The position numbers were made by a program, and so were the translations under genes. DNA of 64,000 nt from an uncultured Leptospiraceae bacterium (GTDB taxonomy: Bacteria > Spirochaetota > UBA4802 > UB4802). This document shows, piece after piece, positions 2,693 to 40,443 of this stretch. Positions within the stretch are counted from its first letter, which is position 1. Each line of letters begins with the position of its first letter. The stretch spans positions 6,014 to 70,013 of the forward strand of contig CAZAOK010000004.1 in the NCBI GenBank assembly GCA_964486725.1. The letters are read 5' to 3'. The notes under the pieces are model-generated. The model was not told where the DNA came from, searched no databases, and worked only from the letters and a program-made list of their open reading frames with translations.

Positions 2693-2704
2693 ATAATGCC
2701 GGGA

Positions 2705-5775: not shown

Positions 5776-5793
5776 TGCCGTTCCTCCTCCTTA

Positions 5794-7023: not shown

Positions 7024-7052
7024 TCAGATTTTATATGTGTTTTTGTTTTGCT

Positions 7053-7125: not shown

Positions 7126-7244
7126 TTTCCCTTCAGATTTTTTCTACTCACTATACAGTATATAAATAGTATCGGTATAATCATTTTTTTTATCAGTTTA
7201 CTTCTTATTTTTATAACACAATATCTCGAATTCTTGATAGTGTT

Positions 7245-7395: not shown

Positions 7396-7517
7396 AAAGT
7401 TTTAAAAATTCCGTGGTGTTCAAATTTTTGCTTCTTTCTTGACAAAAAACCGCCGGGTACATATTTCTTAAAGCTGTAGATGTGTAACGTGACAAGATCC
7501 TGTAAACGAGGTTCCTT

Positions 7518-8780
7518 ATGATCGATCCAAGGCTGATTCGTGAAAACATTGATACCGTAAAAGACATGGTAAAGAAGAGGAATATGGAAGGGGTGGTGGA
7601 TTTTTCCCGGCTTGAAACCATTGATGAGGAACGTCGATCACTAATTACCAGTGCAGATGAACTTCGAGAACAACGAAATAAATATTCAAAAGAAATTGGA
7701 AATAAAAAGCAAAAAGGCGAAGACGCAACTGAGATGATGGAAGCGGTAAAGGGGGTTTCTGACAGCATAAAGGAGCTTGAAGCCCGCCTTGCCGTGTTGA
7801 ATGATGAATATAACGACATGGTATTGTCCATTCCCAATATGATTGGTGAAGATGTTCCGGCAGGAGTGGATGAATCTGACAACGTGGAAGTGCGAAGCTG
7901 GGGAAGTAAACCCTCATTCGATTTTGAGCCCCTGCCGCATTATGAAATCGGAACAGCCCTTGATATACTGGATTTTGAACGGGGTGTCAAGATTGCCGGT
8001 GCCAGGTTCTATGTGTACAGGGGGCTGGCTGCCCGCCTGGAAAGGGCAATAATAAACTTCATGCTTGACCTGCATACCCGCGAGAACGGGTACGAAGAGG
8101 TGTTTGGGCCTTTCATCGTTAATGATGAAAGTATGACAGGTACCGGTCAGTATCCAAAGTTCATGGATGAGTATTACCGAATTGAGCGGGACGGGCTCTC
8201 GCTGATCCCCACCGCCGAGGTGACATTGACCAACCTTTACCGGGATGAAATATTACCGGGTGATTCACTACCCGTTAATGTTACCATGCAGTCGTCCTGT
8301 TTCAGAAGAGAAGCGGGAGCAGCAGGCCGTGACACCAGGGGGCTTGTTCGTGTTCACCAGTTTCAGAAGGTTGAACTGGTAAAATTTGTAGAACCTGAAA
8401 CATCATTTGATGAGCTCGAAAAACTGGTGGCCCATGCCGAAGAAGTGTTGAAACGTTTAAACCTGCATTACAGGGTGATGCTCCTTTGCAGTGGAGATAC
8501 TTCGGCATCTTCGGCCAGGACATATGACATAGAAGTCTGGATGCCCGGCCTTAACCGTTACCTGGAGATTTCTTCGTGTTCCAATTTTCTTGATTACCAG
8601 GCCCGCCGGGCGAAGATCCGTTACCGTCCCGCCGCAGGCGGCAAGCCGGTGCTTGTGCACACGTTGAATGGATCAGGTCTGGCCGCGGGTAGAACCATGG
8701 CCGCTGTTATGGAAAACTTTCAAAATAAAGACAAAACCTTCGATATCCCCGATGTACTCAAACCTTACATGGGGATGTAA
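7518..8780 (+). CDS. serS: Seryl-tRNA synthetase
   Basis: 420 aa with an N-terminal coiled-coil arm (MIDPRLIRENIDTVKDMVKKRN) and a class II core (FRREAGAAGRDTRGLVRVHQFQKVE, GSGLAAGRTMAA). Confidence 0.95.
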   Translation: MIDPRLIRENIDTVKDMVKKRNMEGVVDFSRLETIDEERRSLITSADELREQRNKYSKEIGNKKQKGEDATEMMEAVKGVSDSIKELEARLAVLNDEYNDMVLSIPNMIGEDVPAGVDESDNVEVRSWGSKPSFDFEPLPHYEIGTALDILDFERGVKIAGARFYVYRGLAARLERAIINFMLDLHTRENGYEEVFGPFIVNDESMTGTGQYPKFMDEYYRIERDGLSLIPTAEVTLTNLYRDEILPGDSLPVNVTMQSSCFRREAGAAGRDTRGLVRVHQFQKVELVKFVEPETSFDELEKLVAHAEEVLKRLNLHYRVMLLCSGDTSASSARTYDIEVWMPGLNRYLEISSCSNFLDYQARRAKIRYRPAAGGKPVLVHTLNGSGLAAGRTMAAVMENFQNKDKTFDIPDVLKPYMGM

Positions 8781-8797
8781 AACTATATGCGATTACG

Positions 8798-9781
8798 TTG
8801 TTAATGATAGTTGTTGACCTTGAAAATATAGATTGGACAGCATTTCGGCAGGTCGTGGCATTGTCCCTGGCAACCGGCCGGGATTGCAGCATCAGGGGAC
8901 TTGGGCAGCTCTTTGACCACATACATAACAGGCGCATGTGGAAAGTACTGAAAAATATTATGGAATTGATCCCGGGTGTTGACGTAATCGAGCGGGATAA
9001 TCAGGTACGTATTATATCCTCCGGTCTGAAGTACGGAATTTATCACGTTGAAACACACAGGTATGCACCTGTGACGGATATTATTCTTACCCTTGCACCT
9101 GCGTTATCAAATTGTGAATTTGTATCAGAACTACACCTGAAAGGTGTTACCCATTCACCGTACTCACATCCGGCCTCATTTTTGAAAACATCACTGAATG
9201 CGCTGATCACGGACGCGGGATACACGGTGGCCAGTTCGCTGAAAAAATTTGGATTTTATGGTTCAGGTGATGGTGAAATTGTCACGAAAATATATCCCAT
9301 GGTGAAGCATGCAAATTTCATTCTCCCCGTATCGTACAACTGGGAGATGGTGAGTGCCCGTGTGTACGTGGCAAAGATAGATACCGCCTTTGCCAGCTAT
9401 CAAAAAGAATACCTGGCAAAAGAACTGCACATTGATGCTAATTCCATATCAATAATGGAAATTGTGAACAGCAGTGGATATGGGAATCACATTGATGTCA
9501 ATATCCGCGGTGGTGATATGGAGATGGTAGAGTCAATGACCATGATGTTATATAACGCTGATGGTGATTTCGTGTTTACTGATGACAGTATGCGTGACAG
9601 CATGAAAGAATTCTGTGCAAGGATTAAGAATATAATCGATGATAAAAAAATACCATATCCTTTGCTTCGTGAAGCTATTCCGTTTATAAAGCTTGCCGGT
9701 TTGGATTGTGATGAGTATAATGATGCAGAAGATACGGGTATGGAGTTAACACGTAGACTGTGCCAACTGTTTTCATTGTAA
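8798..9781 (+). CDS. RNA 3'-terminal phosphate cyclase (RtcA) family protein, divergent
   Basis: Similar to the RtcA N-terminal region: FRQVVALSLATGRDCSIRGL matches [21 protein letters not shown], and LTLAPALSNCEF..HLKGVTHSPYSHPASF matches LQTVLPAL...GGTDNPSAPPADF. Confidence 0.55.
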   Translation: MLMIVVDLENIDWTAFRQVVALSLATGRDCSIRGLGQLFDHIHNRRMWKVLKNIMELIPGVDVIERDNQVRIISSGLKYGIYHVETHRYAPVTDIILTLAPALSNCEFVSELHLKGVTHSPYSHPASFLKTSLNALITDAGYTVASSLKKFGFYGSGDGEIVTKIYPMVKHANFILPVSYNWEMVSARVYVAKIDTAFASYQKEYLAKELHIDANSISIMEIVNSSGYGNHIDVNIRGGDMEMVESMTMMLYNADGDFVFTDDSMRDSMKEFCARIKNIIDDKKIPYPLLREAIPFIKLAGLDCDEYNDAEDTGMELTRRLCQLFSL

Positions 9782-9871
9782 TGTTTAGTAATAATCATGT
9801 GTACATGAATCAAAGACTGAAGTTGAGCGGCCGAAAAACCGCGGTTATTTATTTATACGTGATATGGGGAA

Positions 9872-10003
9872 TTACACAAGGGTAATAATATTTTCAATTT
9901 TTGCGCAGTCTATACAGTATCGTGTACCCCTGGTTTTTCCCTTGCCTGGTACATAATAGTGGTTGAGACTGTTTAGTTGTTTGCCGCATTTTACGCATTT
10001 CAT
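9872..10003 (-). CDS. Small zinc-ribbon protein (43 aa, two CxxC pairs)
   Basis: Minus-strand ORF MKCVKCGKQLNSLNHYYVPGKGKTRGTRYCIDCAKIENIITLV, too short for the track. Its CxxC...CxxC spacing is typical of a zinc ribbon. It sits in a long AT-rich intergenic region. Confidence 0.35.
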   Translation of the reverse strand: MKCVKCGKQLNSLNHYYVPGKGKTRGTRYCIDCAKIENIITLV

Positions 10004-10459
10004 AATTAATACCCTGATGGATTAGTATGATATAATACACTGTTACTATTTTCGGTTTTCATGATTATTTTGTTAATAAAAAAACTGGGTCATTCCGGAT
10101 TATTGGGAATTGAAAATAATTTTTTATAACAATAACCTTTGAAATTGCAATTCACATAATTTTTTAACTGCAGATAAATGGAATTAAGTGAAAAGTGAAA
10201 GGTGAAAAGTTAGTAGTGACGAGTGATCAGTTCACTTCCCACGGTTCACTATTCACTAATCATCCGCGTTAATCTGCGTTTATCGAGCGAAGCGGGCGGT
10301 TTCATGTATTTAAAGCCGTATGATATCATAAGCTTTTCTTTGGGGGACTAATAATTCATATTCATAAAAATAAATTATGATGGTTTTCCCCAAAATTCCG
10401 GAATGAGCCAAAAAATTAGTTTACAATAAGTAACCGGTGATCTATTATCGCCGACTATT

Positions 10460-10798
10460 TTGAACCTGGAGGAGCATGTATTTATGGCCGCAAAGACCAG
10501 TCAATCGTCAATAACTAAAAGATCAAAGAAAAAGACCAATCTTCAGAAGCTGTCAACGACAATGAATAAACTTGCGCATGACGCGGTTGATAAGGAAGTG
10601 GTAAAGAGGTTTAAAACATACATCGATACTTCATCAGAAGATATCAGCAAGGTAAATCTTGACCAGATCCTTAAAAACTCAGAAGACCTGGTGTTAAGCA
10701 GCTATAATGAGAGCCTGCAACCATACATTAAGCATTACCTGTTTATGAAGAAAAGAGAAGAAAAAAAGAAGACAAAAAAAAGTAAGAATATTTTCTAA
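10460..10798 (+). CDS. Hypothetical lysine-rich small protein (possible nucleic-acid-binding)
   Basis: 112-aa ORF with basic K-rich termini (KRSKKKTNLQK; KKREEKKKTKKSKNIF) and no recognisable domain. It lies immediately upstream of moaD-moaE. Confidence 0.35.
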   Translation: MNLEEHVFMAAKTSQSSITKRSKKKTNLQKLSTTMNKLAHDAVDKEVVKRFKTYIDTSSEDISKVNLDQILKNSEDLVLSSYNESLQPYIKHYLFMKKREEKKKTKKSKNIF

Positions 10799-10803
10799 TA
10801 TTT

Positions 10804-11049
10804 ATGAAAATTACTGTCAAAACATTCGCAACCGTAACGGATATCACCGGCTTTTCTACCTCCAGTATCGAGATAACAGGTGGGAAAACTGTAGGATATG
10901 TGTTGAAGTATTTACAGGGTGAATATCCCAGGCTGAAGAAAATACTTGATTCATTACTGGTTGCGGTTAACGAGGAATATGCAGATCATACCCATGAGTT
11001 GAAAGAGGGTGATGTTCTTGCCATTTTTCCTCCCGTGAGCGGCGGGTAG
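10804..11049 (+). CDS. moaD: MoaD/ThiS-family sulfur carrier protein (C-terminal GG)
   Basis: 81-aa beta-grasp protein ending in VSGG. It overlaps the following MoaE gene, with an RBS in between. Confidence 0.8.
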   Translation: MKITVKTFATVTDITGFSTSSIEITGGKTVGYVLKYLQGEYPRLKKILDSLLVAVNEEYADHTHELKEGDVLAIFPPVSGG

Positions 11050-11057
11050 GAGGTAAA

Positions 11058-11474
11058 ATGGTATACTGCAGGTTTCAGGAAGCCCCCCTTGATATCAATG
11101 AAATCACCGGGATGGTTGGAAAAGAATCAGACGGTGCTGTTGTTATATTCACCGGTCAGGCCAGAAATAAAACCGGTGAAAAAGAGGTTACCCACCTTGA
11201 ATACCAGTTGTACCAGGATATGGCAGAAAAAGAACTGAAAAAGATTTTACATGATGCTTCCGCTAAATGGGGTCTAACCGATTGCGTGGTAATTCACAGG
11301 TTTGGTAAAGTATTACCAGGCCAGGTAAGTATAATTATTGGGGTATCCTCACCTCACCGAGATGAAGCATACTCCGCTTCACGGTATATCATTGATACCA
11401 TAAAAAAAACTGTTCCGGTGTGGAAAAAAGAGTTTTACAGGGATGGTTCAAGCTGGATTACAAAAGGTAGCTAG
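11058..11474 (+). CDS. moaE: Molybdopterin synthase catalytic subunit MoaE
   Basis: 138 aa carrying the motifs GAVVIFTG..R, HLEYQLYQDMAE and SPHRDEAY..IDTIKKTVPVWKKE, typical of MoaE. Confidence 0.85.
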   Translation: MVYCRFQEAPLDINEITGMVGKESDGAVVIFTGQARNKTGEKEVTHLEYQLYQDMAEKELKKILHDASAKWGLTDCVVIHRFGKVLPGQVSIIIGVSSPHRDEAYSASRYIIDTIKKTVPVWKKEFYRDGSSWITKGS

Positions 11475-11859
11475 CCTTGCTTTTCAGTACTTCGTTAAGA
11501 ATCGTTTCAGCATTCCTGTTAAAGTGTTCAGCCTGTGTCCGTGAGACGCGAATGCCGTCGTCGTTTTCAAGCATTTCTTTGAATGTCCTGGCGTTGTGCA
11601 ATATATCAACGATATCCAGTTCAGTCCATCCGTTAGGAGAATAATATTCTTCTACCAGTTCAAGTATCTTGTTGTGATCGTCTGAATCCTGACCATCGTC
11701 GATAAGAAGAATCCGCACCGCGTAAAACATGGATAGATATGAATAAACTATGGAATCGTTGTATAGTTCTTTCTCAAGCATAAGGGAAGATATCTTTAGT
11801 TTTTCCCTGCTTTGCTCAACCCTGAAATTCTTTTTCTTTTCAGTATCTACATTCATCAT
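11458..11859 (-). CDS. HEPN-domain-like protein (Rx4H motif)
   Basis: 133-aa alpha-helical ORF with a C-terminal RTQAEHFN (R-x4-H) motif characteristic of HEPN. It overlaps the moaE 3' end by 17 nt in convergent orientation, and no adjacent nucleotidyltransferase partner is seen. Confidence 0.35.
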   Translation of the reverse strand: MMNVDTEKKKNFRVEQSREKLKISSLMLEKELYNDSIVYSYLSMFYAVRILLIDDGQDSDDHNKILELVEEYYSPNGWTELDIVDILHNARTFKEMLENDDGIRVSRTQAEHFNRNAETILNEVLKSKASYLL

Positions 11860-12113
11860 ATCTCAATTATTCCCTGCGTTAATTCTATATTATAAAGTAT
11901 GACCATCGAACAGGAAAATCCATATTATGTTCCATTAATTATTAAAAAAATTAAATATTTAAGAGAACATTATCTATTGAATATCAACTTATGTAAGTCA
12001 GCAAGAACTTTTTTATAATTTCTGCGACTATGACTACGATGCGGTTTTTTACTTGCGCGCAATACCAGCTGTATATTACCATTCATCGCGAATGTGAAAA
12101 GAAGGAGCGACCA

Positions 12114-13730
12114 ATGAACAAAGACTGGCTATGGTGGAAGCACGGTGTAATATACCAGATATATCCCAGGAGTTTTTATGATACCAACAATGACGGCATA
12201 GGTGATATCCCCGGCATTCATGCCAGGCTGGATTATCTTCAGGATCTGGGTATCGATGGTATATGGTTATCACCCATTAACAGGTCGCCCATGTATGATT
12301 TCGGGTATGATATAAGTGATTACAGGGCAATTGATCCCATCTTCGGCAGCAACGAGGATTTCGAGAAATTTATCAGGGAAGCCCGGAAGCGCAACATACA
12401 TGTTCTCATGGACCTGGTGATGAACCATTCATCCCACCTGCACCAGTGGTTCCTGGATTCCAGGTCGTCACGGGACAATCCCAAACGTGACTGGTATATA
12501 TGGCATGATGGCAAAAAGGGGAAGTATCCAAATAACTGGTATGCTTCTTTCGGAGGACGTGCCTGGGAATGGGACGACCTCACCGGACAGTATTACCTGC
12601 ACACATTTCTGAAAGAGCAGCCAGACCTGAACTGGCGAAGTCCACAACTGAAGAAAGCCATGTTCGACGAAATCCGTTACTGGCTTGACCGGGGTGTGGA
12701 CGGGTTTCGCCTGGACGTGGTGAACTGGTTTATCAAGGATGACAAGTTCAGAAATAATCCCTTTGGCATCGGCCCCTATCCGCGGCCATATGATCTGCAG
12801 AAACATATATATGACCGTAACCGGCCCGAGGTACACCACCTGCTTAATGATTTCAGACGCCTGCTGGATTCATATTCAGAAAGGATGTCGGTTGGCGAGG
12901 TGTACGTAGAAAAACCCGGCAACGTGAGGCAGGCAGCCCGCTACCTTGGTAACGGTGATGACGAGCTTCATCTTTCATTTGATTTCACCATGTTATATGC
13001 CAAATGGGGGGCGAAGCACTATAAAAAAAGTGTGGACACCTGGATGTCCCTCATCCCCGAAAAAGGTTGGCCATGCCATGTGCTTGGAAACCACGACCAG
13101 CCAAGAACAATGTCACGGCTGGGGGGGGACGCAGAAGCTGAGAGAAGAAGCAGGGTACTGGCCGCGCTGCTGCTGACCCTGAAGGGTACTCCCTTCATTT
13201 ACTACGGTGATGAGATCGGAATGAAAGACGGTAAAATTAAGCGCGACCAGCTCATGGACCCGGTTGGGAAAAAATACTGGCCCTTCCATCCAGGCAGGGA
13301 TCCCGAACGAACCCCCATGCAATGGGACAGCACCCCCTTCGCAGGGTTCTCTGATAAAAAGCCGTGGCTTCCGGTCAATCCCGATTATAAAATGGTAAAC
13401 GTGAAAAACCAGCAGAATGACCGGGGATCATTGCTGTCATGGTATAAAAAACTGTTGCACCTGAGAAAAAAAAGCATGGTTCTTTCAATGGGTTCATGGG
13501 AGCCGGTACCAGATCCCGGCAGGGATATATACGCCTATTACCGCTCTTACAAGGGGAAAACCAACCTTGTGCTGTTGAACTTTAAAAATAAACCCAGAAG
13601 GGCAATGGTGCGGTATGACGAACCAACACCGTGGAAAGTGCTTCTTTCAACCCACAGGGGGGAAGGGACGGTAATAGCTGAAATGCCACTTCTCGGTGCG
13701 TATGAAGCAACCATAATGGAAAAGATATAA
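12114..13730 (+). CDS. GH13 alpha-glucosidase / oligo-1,6-glucosidase family (alpha-amylase superfamily)
   Basis: Carries the GH13 catalytic regions WWKHGVIYQIYPRSF, GIDGIWLSPI, HVLMDLVMNHSS, GFRLDVVNW, GEVY and FLGNHDQPR. Start chosen at ATG 12114, behind an AAGGAG RBS. Confidence 0.85.
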   Translation: MNKDWLWWKHGVIYQIYPRSFYDTNNDGIGDIPGIHARLDYLQDLGIDGIWLSPINRSPMYDFGYDISDYRAIDPIFGSNEDFEKFIREARKRNIHVLMDLVMNHSSHLHQWFLDSRSSRDNPKRDWYIWHDGKKGKYPNNWYASFGGRAWEWDDLTGQYYLHTFLKEQPDLNWRSPQLKKAMFDEIRYWLDRGVDGFRLDVVNWFIKDDKFRNNPFGIGPYPRPYDLQKHIYDRNRPEVHHLLNDFRRLLDSYSERMSVGEVYVEKPGNVRQAARYLGNGDDELHLSFDFTMLYAKWGAKHYKKSVDTWMSLIPEKGWPCHVLGNHDQPRTMSRLGGDAEAERRSRVLAALLLTLKGTPFIYYGDEIGMKDGKIKRDQLMDPVGKKYWPFHPGRDPERTPMQWDSTPFAGFSDKKPWLPVNPDYKMVNVKNQQNDRGSLLSWYKKLLHLRKKSMVLSMGSWEPVPDPGRDIYAYYRSYKGKTNLVLLNFKNKPRRAMVRYDEPTPWKVLLSTHRGEGTVIAEMPLLGAYEATIMEKI

Positions 13731-13738
13731 AATAACAA

Positions 13739-16165
13739 TCAGGCCCGCAGCATGGTGATGGTAACCCCGTCACCACCTTCACCCTGCTGTCCTGGACGAA
13801 AATCCCTCACGTATGATGAATGCCCCAGGTATTCGCGAATGGCCTTTTTCAGGGCCCCCGTGCCATGGCCATGAATAACCACCGCGGAATAGATACCGTT
13901 GCGTGTCATTTTGTCAAACATGGATTCAGCCTTGTTAATGGCTTCGTCTACCCGAAGTCCCCTCAGATCAACGGTGTTATAGCTTGTCTGCACGGTAACT
14001 GGAATTTCTGAAACAGCCCCTTCATATACGATAGAAGGTTTTTTCTTTTCTTTATCGGTGTCTTTTTTCCCCTGCCTGTGAGGTGGAATCAGCAGTTCTT
14101 CAAAACGGTGCTGAGAGGTGATGGCGTTACCAAGAATCAATTTCGCGGTATTATTCCTGTTGTCAATCTCATCAATGGTACCATAGGTTTCAAGGGGCTG
14201 AATGTATAAGCGGTCACCCTTTTTCGCGTTAGTACCATCAAAGGGTCGAAATGAATCGGAAAGGCCTCTTTTCCTTGATTCAGCCACGTTGCCTTCAATT
14301 TTATGCTGCATATCAATCAGGTCCTGCTGCAGCTGTCCGGCATTTTGAAGGTCGCCATGCTGAAGCTGGGAAATGCGGTCGGCTACACGTTTCCTGTATT
14401 CTTTCAATTCTTCAATGAACGCTATGCCTGTCTCCGCTTTAACCTCTTCAATTTTTCTATTGAGGTCATTTATCTTCCTGGAGTATTTGTCCTTTTCTGA
14501 AGAGAGTTCTTTCTGCAGCATGAGAAGATGTTTCCTGGTTTCATTGATTTCCTGGTCTTTCTGCTGCAGTTGTTCCAAAAGTGATTCTACCGAAAGGGTT
14601 CTGCTGTCAAGAAGCTCTTTTGAACGATCCAGCACGTTATTCTGCAGTTTATACAGCCTGGCAATCTCAAGGGCGTAGCTTACCCCCGGCAGGCCGATAT
14701 TCACCTGGTAGGTGGGGCGCAGAGAATTCACGTCAAAAGCCACCGACGCGTTTTGAAATCTTGAATCGCGGGACGCGAGCTCTTTCAATTCGGTGTAATG
14801 AGTGGTGGTTACCACCCGTGCGCCAGTGTCGGCCATGGCCTCAAGTACTGCCTGGGCCAGTGCAGCCCCCTGCCTGGGGTCGGTGCCCACAATTATTTCA
14901 TCAATTAGCACCAGGGAGTCTTCGGTGGCATTTTGAAGCATGTCACGGATAATCACTATCTGGCCTGAAAAGGTGGATAATGACTGTGAAAGGTTCTGAT
15001 CATCACCGATATCCGCGTAGATACGGCTGAATATGCCAATCCTTGAATCGGGGCTGGCGGGGATAAGAAGACCGTATGCGGTCATCAGTGTCAACAGGCC
15101 AATGGTTTTCAAAAGAACCGTTTTACCCCCGGTATTTACCCCTGAAATAATGAGACAATTGTAATCATCCCCCAGGGAAATATCACCCGGCACCACATCA
15201 TCAGGCTGGGTGAGGGCCAGCATGGGATGCCTTGCCCTGATGAGATGAACATGTGGGGTATCCGTAATAACCGGCATGGAGGCCTTCATGCGGGCTCCCA
15301 GCCGGGCAGCGGCACTGAGAAAGTCAATATATGACAGTACCCCCTGGTTCTGACGAAGCTCTTCAGCGTGGTCTGCCACCTGCGCGGTCAGCACCTGCAA
15401 AATTCTCTCCAGTTCTCTCTGGTATTCTACACGCCTGAGAACCAGCTGGTTGTTGATATCGGCAATAGATTCGGGTTCAAGGTAGAGGGTGGCACCGGTA
15501 GACGAGGTGTCATGAACCGTACCCCTGATGCGGTTTCTCATTGAAGCCTTAACCAGCACAACGTAGCGATCGTTTCTGAGAGAATGAACTTTTTCCTGAA
15601 GCACCTGGGCAAGATCAGGTGAATTTAGCATGCCCCCCAGCTTTTTCTCGATATCCTTACGTAGTGAAAAGATACTTTGCTGTATCTTTTTCAATGCTGG
15701 AAAATAATTTTCATTTAACTCTTCCTGATCATTGATGGCTTTTGTAAGGGTATCCCGTAGATCAGGCAGGGGATAAAGATTATTTTTTTCATCTTTTAAA
15801 GATGGGATTTCTTCTTCATGTTCTTTTATGAATTCAATTGAACGGTGCGCTGCCAGCACTGATTTTTTTACCGTGGCAAGCTCTTCAACAGTTAACCTGC
15901 CCGAGCGTTCTGATCTTGAGAGAAACACAAGAATATCCCCAAGACCTCCAAGGTCAAAAGCCATTCCCTTGAGAAACAGTTCCATCAACTGGTGCAGCTT
16001 GGTCATCTGCGTGCGAACCCCGTCGATTGACAGGGGATGCAGGTTGTCAACGTATTCTTTTCCCGGATCGGTTGCGCAATGGGCGCGCAGCCTTGAGATA
16101 ATAGAATCCCATTCCAGTACCTTGAATAACTTTTCAGAATAAGTATATGATGGTTCGGTTTCCAT
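13739..16165 (-). CDS. mutS2: Endonuclease MutS2 (MutS domain plus C-terminal Smr)
   Basis: 808 aa with a Walker A GVNTGGKTVLLKT, a MutS ATPase core and a C-terminal Smr domain (VDLRGLRVDEA..VVIHGHGTGALK). Confidence 0.9.
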   Translation of the reverse strand: METEPSYTYSEKLFKVLEWDSIISRLRAHCATDPGKEYVDNLHPLSIDGVRTQMTKLHQLMELFLKGMAFDLGGLGDILVFLSRSERSGRLTVEELATVKKSVLAAHRSIEFIKEHEEEIPSLKDEKNNLYPLPDLRDTLTKAINDQEELNENYFPALKKIQQSIFSLRKDIEKKLGGMLNSPDLAQVLQEKVHSLRNDRYVVLVKASMRNRIRGTVHDTSSTGATLYLEPESIADINNQLVLRRVEYQRELERILQVLTAQVADHAEELRQNQGVLSYIDFLSAAARLGARMKASMPVITDTPHVHLIRARHPMLALTQPDDVVPGDISLGDDYNCLIISGVNTGGKTVLLKTIGLLTLMTAYGLLIPASPDSRIGIFSRIYADIGDDQNLSQSLSTFSGQIVIIRDMLQNATEDSLVLIDEIIVGTDPRQGAALAQAVLEAMADTGARVVTTTHYTELKELASRDSRFQNASVAFDVNSLRPTYQVNIGLPGVSYALEIARLYKLQNNVLDRSKELLDSRTLSVESLLEQLQQKDQEINETRKHLLMLQKELSSEKDKYSRKINDLNRKIEEVKAETGIAFIEELKEYRKRVADRISQLQHGDLQNAGQLQQDLIDMQHKIEGNVAESRKRGLSDSFRPFDGTNAKKGDRLYIQPLETYGTIDEIDNRNNTAKLILGNAITSQHRFEELLIPPHRQGKKDTDKEKKKPSIVYEGAVSEIPVTVQTSYNTVDLRGLRVDEAINKAESMFDKMTRNGIYSAVVIHGHGTGALKKAIREYLGHSSYVRDFRPGQQGEGGDGVTITMLRA

Positions 16166-16210
16166 GGTGTTGAGAACTCTACATGTATAAAATTTAACTA
16201 CAGGGATGGT

Positions 16211-17131
16211 TTATCCTGACAATGAATATTGTAAAGCGTTTTCCAGGTGGGGAAACCTGAACTGGAATCCTTCCTCTGTCAATCGTGATGGCACAACCCT
16301 TGCACTGGACAGAAGCAGTTCGTCCGCCATCTCTCCCGGGAGCGTTCGAAATAAAAATCCAGGAAGATGAAACCATGAAGGCCGACCCATCACCTTCCCC
16401 AGTGTTTTGAAGAATTCCCGTGATCGAAGCTGCTCCGGGGCTGCCAGGTTGTAGGCACCTGAAGATTTTTTACTTTCCATCAGCCAGCATATGGCTTTAA
16501 TCTCGTCCTCGAGGTGAATCCACGGCATCCACTGTGTACCGCTGCCAACATGACCACCCACGAAAAAATTGAAGGGGAGGGTGACAAGTGAAAGGAACCC
16601 GCCGCTGGAAGCCAGGACAAGGGAGGTACGGATGATAACATGGCGAACTCCCATGTCTTTTACAGGGGCTGTTGTTGATTCCCATTCAATAGCCAGATCT
16701 GAAAGAAAACCGTTGCCAGGGTCACAATCCTCGGTAAGTTCAGTATCACCACGTGAGCCGTAATATCCTGATGCGGAGCCCTGTATCAAAACTTCAGGTT
16801 TGTTCTTGGAATTTCTGACTGCCTCAAAAACCGCGTTACCCGCGTTAATCCTGCTATCGCGTATCTTCTCTTTTTTTGACGCAGTCCATCCCGGGCCTGC
16901 TATGGATTCACCTGCCAGGTTGATAATGGCAAAAGCTCCATCCACGTATTGCCCCCAGCCTGTGGATGTTTTCCCATCCCAGGTTACGTAAGAGATGGAT
17001 GAAGTTCCGTTATTCTTTTTGCCTGGATTCCTGGTGAGTATTACAATCTCATATCCTTTTTTCGCCAGCAGGCCTGTGAGATGTGACCCAATGAATCCTG
17101 TTCCCCCTGTTATAATAACTTTTTTGCTCAT
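16211..17131 (-). CDS. TIGR01777/YfcH-family NAD-dependent epimerase/dehydratase (SDR, DUF1731 C-terminus)
   Basis: Has the N-terminal Rossmann motif KVIITGGTGFIGSHL. Its 306-aa length and C-terminal region match the YfcH-like family. Confidence 0.8.
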   Translation of the reverse strand: MSKKVIITGGTGFIGSHLTGLLAKKGYEIVILTRNPGKKNNGTSSISYVTWDGKTSTGWGQYVDGAFAIINLAGESIAGPGWTASKKEKIRDSRINAGNAVFEAVRNSKNKPEVLIQGSASGYYGSRGDTELTEDCDPGNGFLSDLAIEWESTTAPVKDMGVRHVIIRTSLVLASSGGFLSLVTLPFNFFVGGHVGSGTQWMPWIHLEDEIKAICWLMESKKSSGAYNLAAPEQLRSREFFKTLGKVMGRPSWFHLPGFLFRTLPGEMADELLLSSARVVPSRLTEEGFQFRFPHLENALQYSLSG

Positions 17132-17133
17132 AA

Positions 17134-17421
17134 TCAGGTTTCTCCTTTATCTATCTTGAGTTCAATTTCGGTTGCTCCCCAGTTGCTGCCCGCGTCTTTA
17201 AATGATTTTACCATTGGTAATGCGGCAAGCTTCTGGTGAACTGTTTGTTTCAACACCGATTTTCCTTTTCCATGTATTATTATCACCGGCGTAATGCCCT
17301 TTTTCACAGCATTGTGGATGAATTCCTCCACAATTGCTTTCGCGTCACGGGGATGAAACATGTGAAGATCTATTATGTCACCCAGTTCAATTTCTACCGG
17401 GTCGCTGATGTCATCATTCAT
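17134..17421 (-). CDS. Stand-alone Smr domain protein
   Basis: The motif LDLHMFHPRDA..VIIIHGKGKSVLKQ matches the Smr pattern (DLHG..A...V.IIHGKG.G.L). The start is probably the internal ATG at 17421, since the upstream track start has no RBS. Confidence 0.6.
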   Translation of the reverse strand: MNDDISDPVEIELGDIIDLHMFHPRDAKAIVEEFIHNAVKKGITPVIIIHGKGKSVLKQTVHQKLAALPMVKSFKDAGSNWGATEIELKIDKGET

Positions 17422-17532
17422 AGTGCACCAGGTTTCCTTTTTTAAATTGATTAAAAGTACAGGGCATTCATCACCATGATGATACACTGATTAAGGGGAT
17501 GCTTCAACAATTATATATAACTTGTTTTGATG

Positions 17533-18504
17533 TTACCAGACGAAAAGAAGGGGATTGATCACCTTGCCGTGATGATACAGTGTAAAATGAAGGTGAGGGC
17601 CTGTAGATCTTCCGGTTGAGCCGATCCTGCCGATGATGGTAGAGGTTTCCACCTTGTCTCCTTTCTCAACCAGTATTTTGCTGCAATGACCATAAAGGCT
17701 TTCATATCCATCGTTATGCTGAATCATGATTGTATACCCGTAGCCATCTCGCCATCCGCAGAAGTTCACAATACCTTTTCGTACCGGACGAATTGGTGTG
17801 CCATACCGGGCGTTAATATCAATCCCATTATGGAAACGAATACCATGATATATTGGATCAACCCTGTCCCCGTAAAGGGAGGTATAAAATCCACGAACAG
17901 GCTTCCTGAACGTGCGTCGCACGGAGTACAGTTTTTCAAGAGAATCGTTTACGATAACCGGAACAGCTTTTTTAAAAAACACAAACCGGATATCATCAAG
18001 GCTGAATAGTTCAAAAAAATGTGGAAGGTACTCTCCTGATACTTTTCGGTGTGCTTCAAGCTTTTTTGACATTCGCCACGGGTCGATTATTGAGTCGCAG
18101 GCCAGAAGAACCCCGTCTTCATGGGGCACCACGATGGTTATCCCCTGGCTGGCGGTTAACGTGGTTAAAAAGGGATTTGCCGCAATCAGGGTTTCCAAGC
18201 TTATTCTGCTCCTGCGGGCAACATCCCAGAATGATTCGCCCTGCCGCATGGTATGAAAGGTGATCTTTACGCCGGGATCATGTGGATAGGATTTAAGAAT
18301 TTCGATATACCTGTCAGAATCAGTAAATAATGGAAATCCTTCTTTAAGTTCATACCATTCATCGTTGGCAACAACCCTGTTTTTGCAAAAAGCATAGATG
18401 ATGTTGCCAATAATGAAAACTGTAATGGTAAGTATTGATAATGCCTTCATGATCTTTTGAAGCTGCCATATATGGTAATTTGTTATAGGAATCCAGCGAA
18501 ACAT
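17533..18504 (-). CDS. M23 family metallopeptidase (membrane-anchored)
   Basis: Has an N-terminal TM and a C-terminal HNGIDINARYGTPIRPV..GYGYTIMIQHNDGYESLYGHC..GSTGRSTGPHLHF LytM/M23 signature. Its start codon overlaps the proC stop by 1 nt. Confidence 0.85.
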   Translation of the reverse strand: MFRWIPITNYHIWQLQKIMKALSILTITVFIIGNIIYAFCKNRVVANDEWYELKEGFPLFTDSDRYIEILKSYPHDPGVKITFHTMRQGESFWDVARRSRISLETLIAANPFLTTLTASQGITIVVPHEDGVLLACDSIIDPWRMSKKLEAHRKVSGEYLPHFFELFSLDDIRFVFFKKAVPVIVNDSLEKLYSVRRTFRKPVRGFYTSLYGDRVDPIYHGIRFHNGIDINARYGTPIRPVRKGIVNFCGWRDGYGYTIMIQHNDGYESLYGHCSKILVEKGDKVETSTIIGRIGSTGRSTGPHLHFTLYHHGKVINPLLFVW

Positions 18505-19319
18505 TACCTGGCCCCCAGTTGCCTGGATTTAATTGTGGCAGACTCAATGGCCCTCATCACGGTACCGGAAAAACCGGCGTCTTCAAGTTCGAAAACACCT
18601 TCAATAGTGGTACCTCCCGGTGAAGTGACTTTACCCCGTAGCACAATGGGGTCATCGCCGGTTTCAAGTACCATCTTCGCCGCCCCGTATACCGTCTGGG
18701 CTGCCAGGGTCAGGGCATTGCTTCTGGGAATACCCATGCGAACAGCACCATCTGCCATGGCATTGATCATGGTAAACACGTAGGCAGGACCGCTGCCGGA
18801 TACACCGGTAACCGCGTCCATCATCTTTTCAGGAAGTATGAGCACTTTTCCCAGAACGCTGAATATTGCGTGGGCCACGTTGATAGATTTTTCATCCATC
18901 TCGGCGTTAGGCGAAAGAACAAGCATTCCTTCGCCGACCAGTGATGGGGTATTGGGCATGCATCTGAGTATCTTGTGTTTTTTATTAAGGGAAGACTCGA
19001 TAACAGCATTTGAAATACCTGCAGCGACAGAAATGAGCACGGTATGGGGTTTGAGTACATCTTTGAGTTCGGTGGTGACCCCGGTTATCATGTCAGGTTT
19101 GACCGCAAGTATAATATAGTCACATTTACCGGTCATTTCTGCAAGGGTGGTAACAGGCTGTATCCCTGATGCCGCTAACCGGGTGGTCTTCTCTTCGTCG
19201 ATATCAAAGCCAAAGATATTATCACCGGGCATGTTTTTTAAAAGTCCTTTCACAATGGCAAATCCCATATTGCCAAGCCCTATACAACCAACAGTAATTG
19301 ATTTCAGGGATTGTGTCAT
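18504..19319 (-). CDS. proC: Pyrroline-5-carboxylate reductase
   Basis: 271 aa with ITVGCIGLGNMGFAIVKGL at the N-terminus and the ProC dimerisation domain (GSGPAYVF..VTSPGGTT). Confidence 0.9.
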   Translation of the reverse strand: MTQSLKSITVGCIGLGNMGFAIVKGLLKNMPGDNIFGFDIDEEKTTRLAASGIQPVTTLAEMTGKCDYIILAVKPDMITGVTTELKDVLKPHTVLISVAAGISNAVIESSLNKKHKILRCMPNTPSLVGEGMLVLSPNAEMDEKSINVAHAIFSVLGKVLILPEKMMDAVTGVSGSGPAYVFTMINAMADGAVRMGIPRSNALTLAAQTVYGAAKMVLETGDDPIVLRGKVTSPGGTTIEGVFELEDAGFSGTVMRAIESATIKSRQLGAR

Positions 19320-20002
19320 GTATAACTCCTTGTTCCGAAAATGGAGCTGCCAATACGAACCATGGTTGCCCCTTCTTCCACGGCAATCAGGTAATCGTTA
19401 GACATGCCCATGGAAAGGTCTTTTAATTGCATTTCAGTTTTTTTATTTATTTCGTCCCGCAACTCTCTCAGTTGTCTGAATGCCCGCCTGATACTGTCAT
19501 GATTGTCGGTATTTGGACCGATGGTCATTAATCCCTTCAGCGAAAGATTCTCAAGGGGAAATATCTGTCTGCACAGGGCTTCAGTCTCTACAGGTGACAC
19601 GCCAAACTTTGACGATTCACCCGAAGTATTTACCTGGACAAGTATATCCATAGTTCTTCCCGCTTTTTTTGCCTCTTCATTTAACTTTTGAGCAGTACTG
19701 AACTTGTCTATTGAATGAACACAGTCAAATAACCGAACGGCGTATTTAGCCTTGTTTGATTGCAGGTGACCAACAAGGTGTACACTGAAATTACCCCTGA
19801 GTGCCGGTATCTTGTTTCGGGCTTCCTGTATTTTGTTCTCTCCCAGGAGGGTAATTCCGTTGTCTATGGCATCTTGCACAATATCTGCCGAAAATGTTTT
19901 GCAGACAGCGATTATCGATATGTCACCAGGATTCCTGTTGGAAGAAACGGCAGTATCTTCGATCTTCTGCTTTACATATGCATAATTATCGCTGATGCCC
20001 AT
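19316..20002 (-). CDS. yggS: YggS-family PLP-binding homeostasis protein
   Basis: 228 aa containing IAVCKTF, GENKIQEA and HLVGHLQSNKAK. It overlaps the proC start by 4 nt (ATGA). Confidence 0.85.
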   Translation of the reverse strand: MGISDNYAYVKQKIEDTAVSSNRNPGDISIIAVCKTFSADIVQDAIDNGITLLGENKIQEARNKIPALRGNFSVHLVGHLQSNKAKYAVRLFDCVHSIDKFSTAQKLNEEAKKAGRTMDILVQVNTSGESSKFGVSPVETEALCRQIFPLENLSLKGLMTIGPNTDNHDSIRRAFRQLRELRDEINKKTEMQLKDLSMGMSNDYLIAVEEGATMVRIGSSIFGTRSYT

Positions 20003-22498: not shown

Positions 22499-24541
22499 TT
22501 ATTTCAGCACAACCTTTTCGTTTAACTTGTATACTTCCGTAATGTTTTTTAAGTTTTTCAGCCTGGAAATGATATCATTCAGATGTTCAACACTCTTGAC
22601 TTCGAGAACAAATTTAAACAACGCGTTGTCTTTTGCCATCACCTGTGCTTCTGCCTTTAGTATATTGGTTTTTGACATACCAATTTCGTCTGCAACGTCT
22701 TTAAGCAGGTTGGGCCTGTCGAAACCATGTACTGCCAGTTTAACAGGATATGTGCTTTCTGAGCCTTCCCACAATACGTTTATAAATCGTTCACTTTGAG
22801 TTTTGAGTTTTTGAATTGAAGGGCAAGTTTTTTTGTGTATGGTTATTCCCCGTCCCCTGGTAATGAAGCCGATAACATCATCTCCGGGGATAGGCTGACA
22901 ACACTGCGAGAGACGTATCATAACATTGGAGGTACCTTCTATACTTACACCTGCATCTTTTTTGCTGGTAAAATTCTTTATCTTGATCATCTCCTGTTCG
23001 GGTATGGTTACCTCGGCTGTTTTCTGGATCTGATCTTTCTTTTCCTTCTGTTCGCCTTCATGTTCGTCATCCCTGTGTGTCTCGGTGTTTTTTCTAAGCC
23101 AGTTTCGTATCTTGTACCTTGCATTAGATGATTTAACAAATTTCAACCATGCCTGTGAGGGGTGCCCTTTCTTGCTTGTCATGATCTCCACGATATCGCC
23201 GCTATTGAGCTCGGTTTTCAGGGGAACCATGTTATTGTTAACCTTGGCGCCTATGCAGTGATTTCCCACCTCTGTATGTATCATATAGGCGAAATCAACA
23301 GGGGTTGCACCTTTGGCAAGTTTTACTATTTTACCCCGGGGAGTAAATACAAAGATCTCATCTTCATATAAATCCATCTTGAGCTCTTTCATGAACTCGC
23401 GGGTGTCCTTGACTTCTTTTTGCCATTTGTTGATATCCTGAAGAATTGTAAGATTCTTGTATTCGTTCGTTATCCTGGCAGGCCCCTCCTTGTAAAGCCA
23501 GTGGGCGGCGATTCCCATCTCGGCGGTAGCATGCATTTCCCAGGTCCGAATCTGTATTTCCAGTGGATGTCCCCCCGGACCTACGACGCTGGTATGCAGC
23601 GACTGGTACATGTTTGACTTGGGTACCGCGATGTAATCCTTGAAGCGGCCGGTAATTGGTGTCCAGAGGGTGTGAATGATACCAAGTATTCCGTAACAGT
23701 CCCTGATCTCATCGGTAATTATGCGTATTGCCCGCAGGTCGAAGATATCATCGAAGGTTTTACCCTGGTAATGTATTTTCCGGTATATTGAATAATAGTG
23801 CTTAACCCTGCCGTTTATCTGGGCGTTTATATTCATCTCCGCAAGATGCTTTTGAATGGTATCCCGAATATCATCGATGTAGGTCTCGATTTCATTGTGT
23901 CGCTGTTTTACGTTTTGAGCAATTTTTTCAAATTCATCGGCGTGCAGCACCATGAAGGCAAGGTCTTCAAGTTCTGAACGTACCTGGGACATCCCAAGCC
24001 GGCCTGCCATGGGGGCGTAGATATCACGCACCTCTTCTGCGATCCTTCGCTGCTTATGGGGTGGGTGAAACATTATAGTGCGCATATTGTGAAGCTTGTC
24101 AGCAAGCTTAACGATAATTACTCTTACGTCTTTTATAGTAGCAAGAAGCATCTTTCTCAGGCTGTGCGCCTGCTCCTGGTGCCTTGTTCTTTTTTTCAAT
24201 GACGATATTTTCGTGACACCGTCAACAAGTTGTGTTACTTCATCTCCGAACAGGCTGGACAATTCTTTCAGTGAGATTTCAGTATCCTCAACTACGTCGT
24301 GCAGCAAGGCAGCGGCAATAGTAATAGTATCCATTTTGAGGTTTGCAAGAATTATCGCCACTTCAAGTGGATGGATAATGAATGGTTCTCCTGAAAGACG
24401 TTCCTGGTTACGGTGGGCATTGTAGGCATAATCATAGGCTTTCCGCACAAGATCAACATCCGCGTCCGCATCATTGGCGTGTATAATCTGGATAAGAGTG
24501 TCCAGGTCCCTGCTTTTTATTTTAAAATCAATCTGTGGCAT
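22499..24541 (-). CDS. Bifunctional (p)ppGpp synthetase/hydrolase RelA/SpoT family
   Basis: 680 aa comprising an HD hydrolase domain (AALLHDVVEDT), a synthetase domain (YQSLHTSVVGPGG..EIQIRT), TGS and a C-terminal ACT-like region. Confidence 0.9.
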   Translation of the reverse strand: MPQIDFKIKSRDLDTLIQIIHANDADADVDLVRKAYDYAYNAHRNQERLSGEPFIIHPLEVAIILANLKMDTITIAAALLHDVVEDTEISLKELSSLFGDEVTQLVDGVTKISSLKKRTRHQEQAHSLRKMLLATIKDVRVIIVKLADKLHNMRTIMFHPPHKQRRIAEEVRDIYAPMAGRLGMSQVRSELEDLAFMVLHADEFEKIAQNVKQRHNEIETYIDDIRDTIQKHLAEMNINAQINGRVKHYYSIYRKIHYQGKTFDDIFDLRAIRIITDEIRDCYGILGIIHTLWTPITGRFKDYIAVPKSNMYQSLHTSVVGPGGHPLEIQIRTWEMHATAEMGIAAHWLYKEGPARITNEYKNLTILQDINKWQKEVKDTREFMKELKMDLYEDEIFVFTPRGKIVKLAKGATPVDFAYMIHTEVGNHCIGAKVNNNMVPLKTELNSGDIVEIMTSKKGHPSQAWLKFVKSSNARYKIRNWLRKNTETHRDDEHEGEQKEKKDQIQKTAEVTIPEQEMIKIKNFTSKKDAGVSIEGTSNVMIRLSQCCQPIPGDDVIGFITRGRGITIHKKTCPSIQKLKTQSERFINVLWEGSESTYPVKLAVHGFDRPNLLKDVADEIGMSKTNILKAEAQVMAKDNALFKFVLEVKSVEHLNDIISRLKNLKNITEVYKLNEKVVLK

Positions 24542-24660
24542 ATCACCTGCATTTCATATACAAAGTTTTTGTTCTAATATAATAAAATATTATTAGTTTT
24601 TCCATATAAAATTACCATATACAGTGTAGAAATCAAGCTTCATGTTGTCATTTCTTTTTT

Positions 24661-24986
24661 CTCACCACAGGGGCACTGAGAAACAGAGAGTCGCGTTTAT
24701 AGCCCTGTAAGGATTACCACAGAGACGCCAAGTACGCTAAGTTCGCAAAGAAGAAGATGTTTATAAATATTTTGTAATTACTCAGCTGTCATGATTAAAA
24801 GTTTCAATTATCGTAAAATGAATAATAATATTATGGCTCCCCCGCCGAAGGCGGGGGGAGATGATCAATATTTTAGTCATAGCTGAGTAGTAACGGTTAT
24901 TGTTATAAAAATTATTTTCAATTCCCAATAATCCGGAAAGAGTGAATAAAAAAATTACCTCTGTTTATCTGTGCCCCTGCAGTGAA
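24661..24986. repeat. Composite intergenic unit bounded by ~30-bp imperfect inverted repeats and containing repeat copy b plus a 44-nt shared segment
   Basis: The left repeat ctcaccacaggggcactgagaaacagagag (24661-24690) is the imperfect reverse complement of cctctgtttatctgtgcccctgcagtgaa (24958-24986), with about 22 of 30 positions matching. Inside, segment 24895-24938 is the reverse complement of 10094-10136. Confidence 0.4.
24774..24894. repeat. Structured intergenic repeat (MITE/REP-like), copy b
   Basis: Arms gtaattactcagctgtcatg and tcatagctgagtagtaac flank the central hairpin ctcccccgccgaaggcggggggag (24837-24860). Confidence 0.6.
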
Positions 24987-25074
24987 ATTTTTTTACTTAA
25001 GCATAAATGACATAATCCGATGTATTAATTAATCGATAGTTAGTAACACTCCTATTATTACATTTACCGGGTTT

Positions 25075-25118
25075 AAGGCTTTTGCAGACGGCACTCCTGC
25101 AAAAGCCTTACATTTTTT
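25075..25118 (+). terminator. Orphan intrinsic-terminator-like hairpin upstream of tsaC
   Basis: aaggcttttgcag-acggcactc-ctgcaaaagcctt is a 13-bp perfect stem followed by acatttttt on the plus strand. No plus-strand CDS lies upstream of it, only the repeat unit. Confidence 0.4.
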
Positions 25119-25217
25119 CTTGAATTTTTATGTCTCTTCATTGCTGCTGTATTTTATTTTTATTGAAGATGGATTGATAATATGTGTAACAATTTAACTG
25201 TCGTGATATCATAATGG

Positions 25218-25838
25218 GTGCGTGTAATGATATTTGTTGTTAATGAACAAAATCCGCAAAAGCGCTTTATACAGAAAGCCAGTGATATTCTGAAAGAGGG
25301 TGGGGTAATAATCTATCCTACGGATACCGTGTACGCGTATGGTTGTGATATTCAGGACAAACGCGCTATTGAAAAAATTTACCGTTTAAAAAAGATACAC
25401 AGAAATAAACCACTGAGTTTTATATTTTCGGATATATCAGAAATGCACCAGTATGTTCGTAATGTTTCTGATAAAGCTTTTAAAATAATGAGGAAGACTC
25501 TGCCGGGTCCGTATACATACATTTTTAAGGCTTCAAAGCTGGTTCCAAGAATTGCCATCACCAACCAGAAGACCATTGGCGTGAGGATTCCTGCGAGCAA
25601 TATCGCGCTTGAACTTGAGAGAACGCTTGGACGACCAATAATGTCAGCAAGTGTGAATACGTCATCCGGTGATTACATGGTAGATCCGGATGAACTTGAA
25701 AAGCAGTTTCGAAACGAAGTTGACCTGGTATTGAGTGTTGGTCCGCAAAAATCAGAAGTATCCACCATGGTTGACTTTTCACAGGGAGATGTTACAATAC
25801 TGAGGAAAGGAAAAGGCGAACTCTTTTTTCTGGAGTAG
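25218..25838 (+). CDS. tsaC: L-threonylcarbamoyladenylate synthase TsaC/YrdC family
   Basis: 206 aa with GGVIIYPTDTVYAYGCD..AIEKIYRLK and a YrdC fold. The start may be GTG 25218 or ATG 25227. Confidence 0.85.
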   Translation: MRVMIFVVNEQNPQKRFIQKASDILKEGGVIIYPTDTVYAYGCDIQDKRAIEKIYRLKKIHRNKPLSFIFSDISEMHQYVRNVSDKAFKIMRKTLPGPYTYIFKASKLVPRIAITNQKTIGVRIPASNIALELERTLGRPIMSASVNTSSGDYMVDPDELEKQFRNEVDLVLSVGPQKSEVSTMVDFSQGDVTILRKGKGELFFLE

Positions 25839-33182: not shown

Positions 33183-33334
33183 AGTAACTACTCACCTATG
33201 ACTAAAATATTGATTATATACTTCATAATGAAAAGGAATTTGAGCATCTTCCCCCGCCTTCGGCGGGGGAAGATGCAGGATTATTATTCATTTTGCATAA
33301 TTTGTAATTATTCAGCATGACAGTTGAGTAGTTA
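33183..33334. repeat. Structured intergenic repeat (MITE/REP-like), copy c (inverted orientation)
   Basis: gtaactactcacctatgactaaaatattgat, then hairpin gcatcttcccccgccttcggcgggggaagatgc (33243-33275), then cattttgcataatttgtaattattcagcatgacagttgagtagttac. It is close to the reverse complement of copy d. Confidence 0.6.
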
Positions 33335-33419
33335 CGAAAAGTATTGGAATGAATAAAAAAATAGAAACATTGTAAATTGGTATTGTTGTTGACGAAAGGT
33401 GGTAAATATGAATGAATAA

Positions 33420-40150: not shown

Positions 40151-40299
40151 CGTAATTACTCAGCTGTCATGCTGAATAATTACAAATTATGCTAAAATGA
40201 ATAATCCTGCATCTCCCCCGCCGAAGGCGGGGGGAGATGCTCAAATTCATTTTCATTATGAAGTAAATGATCAATATTTTAGTCATAGCTGAGTAGTCA
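40151..40299. repeat. Structured intergenic repeat (MITE/REP-like), copy d (most complete)
   Basis: gtaattactcagctgtcatgctgaataattac forms its own hairpin arm. It is followed by the central hairpin gcatctcccccgccgaaggcggggggagatgc (40208-40239) and the right arm atcaatattttagtcatagctgagtagtcac. Confidence 0.6.
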
Positions 40300-40443
40300 C
40301 GAAAAAACGATGAATTTTAATCATTGACAACAACAAAGTTCATGTTGTAACAGTGAGTTATAATTGAAAATCAGATGACCCGCTTGATGAGAGCAATAAT
40401 AAGTTTTAATCAAACATCAGTATAAACATGGAGTGTAATTTGT

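Follow-up and report, generated by a model that had tools for sequence, protein, structure and literature searches.

A probable mosaic of decaying mobile repeats beside a single-copy candidate small RNA gene in the relA/spoT-yrdC intergenic region of an uncultured Spirochaetota bacterium

The stretch of DNA analysed here (64,000 nucleotides, 64 kb; hereafter, the window) contains a divergent intergenic region of 685 nt, which separates a relA/spoT homologue on the minus strand from a gene of the Sua5/YciO/YrdC family (yrdC/tsaC) on the plus strand. Judged by the homologues of its RelA protein, this organism belongs among uncultured Spirochaetota, and positions 1-19472 of the window are 100% identical to contig JBMCIG010000037.1 of assembly GCA_048616955.1. 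By means of exact-protein look-ups and one metagenome scan, we assembled the loci of 19 relatives that share the order relA, spacer, RNA and yrdC. Exact look-ups with the RelA of the window and with YrdC read from a GTG start returned no match, and the look-up with YrdC read from an ATG start returned a 2.1-kb Logan contig as its sole match. The features of the intergenic region, together with related repeats elsewhere in the window, are listed in Table 1.

Table 1. Genes, repeats and candidate RNA gene at the relA/spoT-yrdC locus, and related repeat copies in the window
Feature	Position	Strand	Remarks
relA/spoT homologue	22499-24541	minus	Pfam domains HD_4, RelA_SpoT, TGS, ACT
Conserved relA/spoT upstream/promoter region	24542-24660	minus	Promoter-like ATGACA-17-TACACT at 24651-24623 (promoter scan)
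Left arm, outer inverted repeat	24662-24688	plus	TCACCACAGGGGCACTGAGAAACAGAG; missing from 95% relatives L002 and L125
Unpaired repeat-arm homologue	24714-24751	plus	~85-88% identity to the 41-nt terminal inverted repeat of L003/L004
E1 copy b	24774-24894	plus	121 nt of a ~150-nt MITE; 30 nt deleted internally
E2, one-ended terminal fragment	24895-24941	minus	Inverted repeat plus subterminal ~30 nt
Right arm, outer inverted repeat	24959-24985	plus	Just upstream of the small-RNA promoter region
Candidate small RNA gene, 103 nt	25016-25118	plus	19 syntenic loci, 11 distinct sequences
Sua5/YciO/YrdC-family gene (yrdC/tsaC)	25227-25838	plus	
E1 copy a	7245-7395	minus	6/8 of duplication matching
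E1 copy c	33184-33335	minus	Perfect 8-bp target-site duplication
E1 copy d	40152-40300	plus	Perfect 8-bp target-site duplication
E2, complete	10085-10409	plus	325-nt MITE-like insertion, non-coding; empty in L131/L132

A preliminary description of this locus had reported imperfect inverted repeats at the two ends of a unit spanning 24661-24986, and these repeats are real. The arms at 24662-24688 and 24959-24985 are 27 nt long, 85% complementary (4 mismatches in 27) and 270 nt apart, and they form the top local inverted repeat across the whole 64-kb window. More specifically, the degenerate arm core CAGGGGCACWGAKAAACAGAG occurs in the window at these two sites only, with 0 occurrences expected in shuffled sequences, and a second copy of the arms was found neither elsewhere in the 64-kb window nor in ~200 kb of sequence from relatives. 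The entire outer unit (326 nt, with trivial open reading frames only) folds into nested hairpins (z = -5.1). Between the left arm and the next repeat lies a further arm-like segment, at 24714-24751, that matches the repeat arm of relative L003 (BLAST E = 8e-6) and has no partner arm in the window.

The same description had placed a small repeat, copy b, inside this unit. Copy b is indeed one of four copies in the window of an element that we term E1, which ends in GTAAYTACTCA...TGAGTAGTYAC and is centred on a CCCCCGCCGAAGGCGGGGG hairpin. The perfect 8-bp duplications of copies c and d are TACTTTTC and GAAAAAAC, respectively, and the site orthologous to copy a is empty in the 84% relatives L131 and L132. 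Because of these 8-bp duplications and the empty orthologous site, we conclude that E1 is a genuine ~150-nt MITE, one that has terminal inverted repeats, duplicates its target, exists in multiple copies and differs in presence between relatives. Copy b is atypical, with no target-site duplication (AATATTTT versus GGTTATTG in the flanks). The element ends by which a candidate mobilising IS could be recognised are GTAAYTACTCA...TGAGTAGTYAC, with an 8-bp duplication, or TGGSTCATTCCGGA. A scan of the genome collection with the central hairpin of E1, YCCCCCGCCGAAGGCGGGGGRA, was unspecific, as most of the matches listed came from Oscillospiraceae, and the only relevant one among them was a related E1-like copy in L058 (Spirochaetae bacterium HGW-Spirochaetae-5). 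Among the matches listed (L005-L113, e.g., contigs CAXXEO0100000xx), the YCCCCCGCCGAAGGCGGGGGRA hairpin is very abundant in one Oscillospiraceae MAG, with at least dozens of occurrences and several per 8 kb, and in related Ruminococcus MAGs; this distribution suggests either an unrelated hairpin repeat of high copy number or a terminator that is favoured in these genomes. In L058, downstream of its E1-like copy (~5440-5540, minus strand), we noted a sequence that we take to resemble a SAM-I (S-box) riboswitch (TTATCAAGAG...GAGGGA...GGCCC...GCAACC...GGTGCTAATTCC).

Directly adjoining copy b is the segment that had been described as 44 nt shared with another unusually long intergenic region, at 10.1 kb. 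This match was confirmed: read as its reverse complement, 10090-10137 matches 24895-24941 over 45 nt at 97.8%; the shared segment amounts to 45-48 nt, with one indel that falls in a T-run. It is explained by the presence at 24.9 kb of one end of a second element, E2, of which the complete copy occupies 10085-10409. In alignment, L131 and L132 (the 84% relatives) cleanly lack this interval between the orthologous genes. The interval carries terminal inverted repeats of 22 nt (86%; 10086-10107 and 10389-10410, TGGGTCATTCCGGATTATTGGG and CCCAAAATTCCGGAATGAGCCA) and sits in an A-run that appears duplicated. E2 accordingly displays the terminal repeats, target duplication and clean empty site of a MITE, and one complete copy and one fragment of it were seen. 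The fragment at 24.9 kb is inverted and starts right where E1 copy b has its final base, and the local alignment spans E2 positions 6-56 only, the rest of E2 having no counterpart there. A degenerate ctgcagataaa remnant, thought to lie at 10168-10180, proved to be at chance level: when 10085-10409 was aligned locally with 24661-24986 after masking of the shared ~50 nt, the best alignment scored 18-19, compared with 19.2 ± 2.4 for shuffled sequences, and the putative remnant is not collinear with the arm.

The unusual length of the 10.1-kb intergenic region is due to the 325-nt E2 insertion together with an unannotated gene of 43 aa. The latter is a CxxC...CxxC zinc-ribbon-like open reading frame at 9872-10003 on the minus strand (MKCVKCGKQLNSLNHYYVPGKGKTRGTRYCIDCAKIENIITLV); ~215 nt around it are ~95% identical to the 84% relatives, and a gene call of 43 aa occupies the same place in L132. 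The interior of E2 consists of a word-repeat hairpin (GTGAAAAGTGAAAGGTGAAAAG ... CACTTCCCACGGTTCACTATTCAC) followed by ATCCGCGTTAATCTGCGTTTATC. Scans of viral contigs yielded three matches to arm 1 of the outer unit, one to the E2 repeat arm and none to the E1 repeat arm, and these matches were dismissed as chance because no similarity extends past the 18-mer.

Independent assembly of the locus is provided by Logan contig L001, which starts at window position 24912 and agrees with the window in orientation. As the sole independent contig there, it confirms the sequence from 24912 onward only, and the left two-thirds of the unit rest on the window's own assembly. A second contig, L137, spans window positions 7308-10116; both are independent Logan unitigs from the same organism, ending inside E1 or E2. 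These unitig ends (7308, 10116 and 24912) coincide with repeat edges and are consistent with branching of the assembly graph at E1 and E2. Misassembly is an unlikely cause of the absent duplication at E1 copy b, since the outer flanks of the unit, as distinct from its interior, are collinear with those of all relatives.

The spacer between relA and the RNA block varies widely among the relatives. It measures 131 nt in L119, L121 and L128, 170-181 nt in L114, L117, L002 and L125, 475 nt in the window and 359-628 nt in several other relatives. Alignment of the relA promoter block to the relatives at 95% and 87% holds as far as ...GTCATTTCTTTTTTCT (24660) and ends there. L002 and L125, which come from two independent assemblies and are the closest relatives (RelA 95%), have only TGTTTCTCTGTGCCCCTGTGGTGA versus the 326 nt of the window. 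Opposite 24661-24985, these two loci hold TACTATGTTTCTCTGTGCCCCTGTGGTGA alone, corresponding to one arm, without the other 294 nt, and their allele retains both T-runs. The right arm of the window is the positional orthologue of this solo arm and, in L003, of the outermost 16 nt of the right-hand repeat arm. The 87% relative (L003/L004) has a different element of 269 nt in its spacer, with 41-nt terminal inverted repeats that are 95% complementary (5603-5643 and 5831-5871 in L003) and whose outer 16 nt resemble the arms of the window. Unrelated inserts were observed at the same spacer position in L003, L120/L124, L122/L129, L123 and L127; that of L127 (6779-7030) is bounded by a 20-nt inverted repeat (90%, AATATAGGGGTTGTCTCAAA), the arms of which are unrelated to those of L003. 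The spacer inserts of L122 (~5060-5260), L129 and L127, all ~70% relatives, contain hairpin words of the type 'GTCATTGCGAGG...CGACGAAGCAATC', a repeat flavour that is found in many bacterial phyla. In L118 (ERZ6864144), an open reading frame of 368 aa without a Pfam match lies between relA and the small RNA (2782-3888).

Taken together, the interval described earlier as one composite probably consists of two unrelated adjacent features, namely, a decaying repeat mosaic and a single-copy RNA gene of ~103 nt. We read 24661-24986 as a lineage-specific mosaic of small non-coding mobile repeats that would have been worn by insertions and deletions, rather than as an intact block; the spacer around it tolerates insertions and separates two divergent promoters, that of relA/spoT facing left and that of the small RNA facing right. 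A larger non-autonomous element with a nested repeat had been proposed for this interval, and part of that proposal stands: compared with the nearest relatives the interval is an indel in the spacer, inverted repeats delimit it, mobile repeats abound in it, and a degraded history of nested MITEs is plausible. Several findings speak against an intact block: a solo right arm exists in the 95% relatives, which lack the other 294 nt, the arms have no second copy in the window or in ~200 kb of relatives, E1 copy b lacks a duplication and the '44-nt segment' represents just one end of another element.

The main form of that proposal, in which the 326-nt unit is one intact non-autonomous MITE, with the 27-nt arms as terminal repeats, inserted as a block with the small repeat aboard or later received, appears rather improbable to us. 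In its favour, the unit is short, does not code for protein and ends in imperfect repeats of 27 nt, as a MITE would; its length nearly equals that of E2, the T-runs that flank it could represent a target duplication comparable to the A-run at E2, and the genome clearly hosts active MITE families. However, there is no unambiguous target-site duplication around the unit, as the T-runs are also present in relatives, nor is there a clean empty site, given that the 'empty' allele of L002/L125 still holds one arm and both T-runs. Moreover, the arms are just 85% complementary and occur nowhere else in the sequences searched, and the interior is made up of an unpaired arm of another element, a one-ended E2 fragment and an E1 copy without duplication. 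That the repeats enclose a promoter segment whose inversion controls relA or the small RNA (a phase-variable 'inverton') can scarcely be credited: inverted repeats of 27 nt at ~270 nt from each other between two divergent genes, as well as a promoter-like TTGGGA-N15/16-TATAAC read by eye in the E2 fragment, would suit it, but active invertons keep near-perfect repeats and those here are mismatched at 4 of 27 positions, the gene tables of the syntenic neighbourhood contain no recombinase gene, the only independent contig matches the window in orientation and close relatives are entirely without one arm.

Returning to the mosaic, the ancestor shared by the window, L002 and L003 lineages would have had a foldback or MITE-type element, with arms beginning TTCACCRCAGRGGCRC, at this site. 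On the branch leading to the window, this ancestral element would then have taken in one copy each of E2 and E1, after which transposon-adjacent deletions would have stripped away the bulk of E2, one inner arm and the target duplication of E1. The lineage of L002 and L125 would have lost nearly everything but one arm. Transposon-adjacent deletion is suggested because a preserved element end beside missing DNA, together with a missing duplication, is the footprint expected of it, and a deletion in L002 is preferred to an insertion in the window because of the piece shared with the outgroup L003. This is the most likely order of events, drawn as it is from the alleles of three close taxa, and its direction is not proven. 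The best explanation for the outer unit is that it has no dedicated function and that it pushes the two promoters ~300 nt further apart and adds hairpin-forming DNA.

Bacterial MITEs include the Correia elements of Neisseria, the ERIC/IRU elements of enterobacteria, RUP of S. pneumoniae and Nezha of cyanobacteria. E1 and E2 resemble such elements in several respects: (i) they are 120-330 nt long, non-coding and intergenic, with terminal inverted repeats and target-site duplications; (ii) they are present or absent between close relatives and fold into long hairpins; and (iii) they accumulate in spacers between promoters, commonly as nested and truncated copies. General reviews on bacterial MITEs are available (PMC3184786, PMC11602168). 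E1 and E2 differ from the named families in that their sequences are unrelated to any family testable here, and the outer 326-nt unit differs from MITEs in that it has no unambiguous target duplication and that one of its arms pre-exists in relatives. The arms are not self-complementary and E1 generates 8-bp duplications, so that neither corresponds to REP, BIME or REPIN sequences (20-40-nt self-palindromic units, often GTAG/CGTC-tagged, without target duplication). A closer likeness is to foldback or 'solo-TIR' remnants, i.e., the IS/MITE junkyards left by adjacent deletions: at the junction of E1 copy b and E2 an element end is precise while the duplication and neighbouring DNA are gone, and in L002/L125 a single arm is left, with the events here being read from three alleles only.

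The second feature of the interval is the block at 25016-25118. The hairpin and T-tract reported at its end were confirmed, with a stem of 13 perfect pairs (25075-25087 and 25097-25109), a 9-nt loop, ACA and then T6 at 25113-25118. Likewise, it is correct that no plus-strand gene lies upstream, the sole upstream gene being relA on the opposite strand. The T-tract occurs on the plus strand only and follows the hairpin on one strand in every homologue, and the block has the same position and orientation in 19/19 loci. Its identity to the window is 95% in L003, 84% in L114 and 71% in L133, as compared with 80%, 72% and 65%, respectively, for the coding DNA of yrdC, and the 80 nt on either side are ~50% identical or less, being effectively unalignable. 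Even in relatives with a RelA that is only 68-71% identical, the block is invariant or nearly so. It contains no open reading frame on either strand. In Rfam 15, no family matched the block at the gathering threshold (the window yielded four tRNAs only), and the sub-threshold matches within 24500-25300 were to unrelated eukaryotic or other families, with E values of 0.14 at best.

The block folds with z = -3.9, and its consensus fold is tripartite, with a short helix that closes it, a hairpin in the middle and the terminator. The middle hairpin (helix 2), which has modest support, presents the invariant ACACUCC in its predicted loop and includes one covarying pair (G-C in five sequences, A-U in three). 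This motif lies within ACACUCCUAU at 25046-25055, and a second CACUCC at 25093-25098 straddles the loop of the terminator and the beginning of its 3' arm. The second motif is not conserved in the GC-richer L133, in which terminator pairing is kept via a compensatory G-C to A-U change and an extension of the stem and the loop sequence is changed. Covariation is thin because the sequences are too similar, with double changes in 2 of 29 pairs, a measure that 92 of 500 shuffles equalled. Weak -10-like boxes, read by eye, are located 7-12 nt upstream of UCCGAUG, and the promoter of the block can be recognised only weakly.

We built a covariance model, R1, from an alignment (A7) of 8 of the 11 distinct homologues. 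Searches with R1 of the window, including the 10.1-kb region, and of the other loci recovered only the locus itself and reverse-strand terminator echoes, i.e., no paralogue. The suggestion of an sRNA gene family occupying the long intergenic regions was rejected on this basis: the block is single-copy and lies outside the inverted-repeat unit. The accompanying idea, that an orphan terminator marks the 3' end of a short independent transcript, fared better, as the terminator closes a strongly conserved non-coding block, which is consistent with such a transcript. Being non-coding, conserved beyond neutral expectation and furnished with an intrinsic terminator at its end, the block has the attributes of an sRNA gene. 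Our analysis of sequence and synteny supports a single conserved candidate sRNA gene of ~103 nt, vertically inherited and ending in a Rho-independent terminator; we infer that it is transcribed, and that its transcription is independent of yrdC.

The strongest competing explanation, which we consider unlikely but worth weighing, is that 25016-25118 is a cis-acting 5' leader of yrdC/tsaC (attenuator or riboswitch-like). In every locus, the block directly precedes yrdC in the same orientation, a constant linkage that is also expected of a cis-acting leader, and a terminator inside a leader is a classic expression platform. The terminator-to-start distance is 108 nt in the window and, by estimate, ~70-150 nt across loci. 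Yet this intervening sequence is not conserved between clades (~50% identity) and contains promoter-like -10/-35 boxes close to the yrdC start codon, nothing in the conserved part upstream could be seen to offer an alternative, antiterminator pairing to one or the other half of the 13-bp stem, and no Rfam cis-regulatory family matched. On the grounds that no antiterminator was seen, and of the boxes before yrdC, the conservation of the block, its single copy in the R1 search and the lack of an Rfam match, we prefer an independent small RNA to a yrdC leader with reasonable confidence. That the hairpin block acts instead at the DNA level, as a palindromic operator for a transcription factor on relA/yrdC, is very improbable: the clade does conserve a perfect 13-bp palindrome, and the symmetric changes in L133 would preserve an operator too, but conservation extends ~60 nt upstream of the palindrome as an asymmetric, non-palindromic block, the T-tract follows the palindrome on one strand only in every homologue, and a 13-bp G+C-containing stem followed by a U-tract is a canonical intrinsic terminator.

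As an independent small RNA, the ~103-nt molecule would act as a trans-acting base-pairing regulator, in which the ACACUCC loop, resembling an anti-Shine-Dalgarno sequence, would occlude the ribosome-binding sites of target mRNAs. Pairing of the loop with ribosome-binding sites is the most likely mode of action by analogy, based on its complementarity to AGGAG-type sites and on known C-rich-seed sRNAs. RsaE/RoxS of Firmicutes are trans-acting sRNAs of this kind, in which C-rich seeds pair with Shine-Dalgarno regions. Similar to RsaE/RoxS, the candidate RNA is ~100 nt long, single-copy and syntenically conserved, has its own terminator hairpin and carries a C/U-rich ACACUCC in a predicted loop that is complementary to AGGAG-type ribosome-binding sites. 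In contrast, it matches no Rfam family in sequence or structure, RsaE and RoxS included, it belongs to a different phylum (uncultured Spirochaetota), and its seed is CUCC rather than a CCCC run. Target scans (RNAduplex against start regions, and a search for AGGAGTG near start codons) were crude and gave nothing convincing.

The composite 'element' is, in our view, ordinary genome litter, and it illustrates clearly how units that appear structured can arise in promoter spacers when MITEs insert and neighbouring DNA is deleted. Repeat annotation can go astray at such units, and short-read assemblies can break there. The useful product of the analysis is a new candidate sRNA family with a defined 5' and 3' extent, an alignment (A7) and a model (R1). 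To our knowledge, no regulatory RNAs have been described in this Spirochaetota lineage. The candidate sRNA adjoins the master stringent-response gene and can be tested for directly in existing metatranscriptomes. Tentatively, we suggest that the block may represent an undescribed clade-wide regulatory RNA of uncultured Spirochaetota, with an anti-Shine-Dalgarno-like seed, locked between relA/spoT and the t6A-synthesis gene yrdC/tsaC, and that the spacer before its promoter may be a preferred landing pad where inverted-repeat elements insert time and again, decay and could retune both divergent promoters by lineage.
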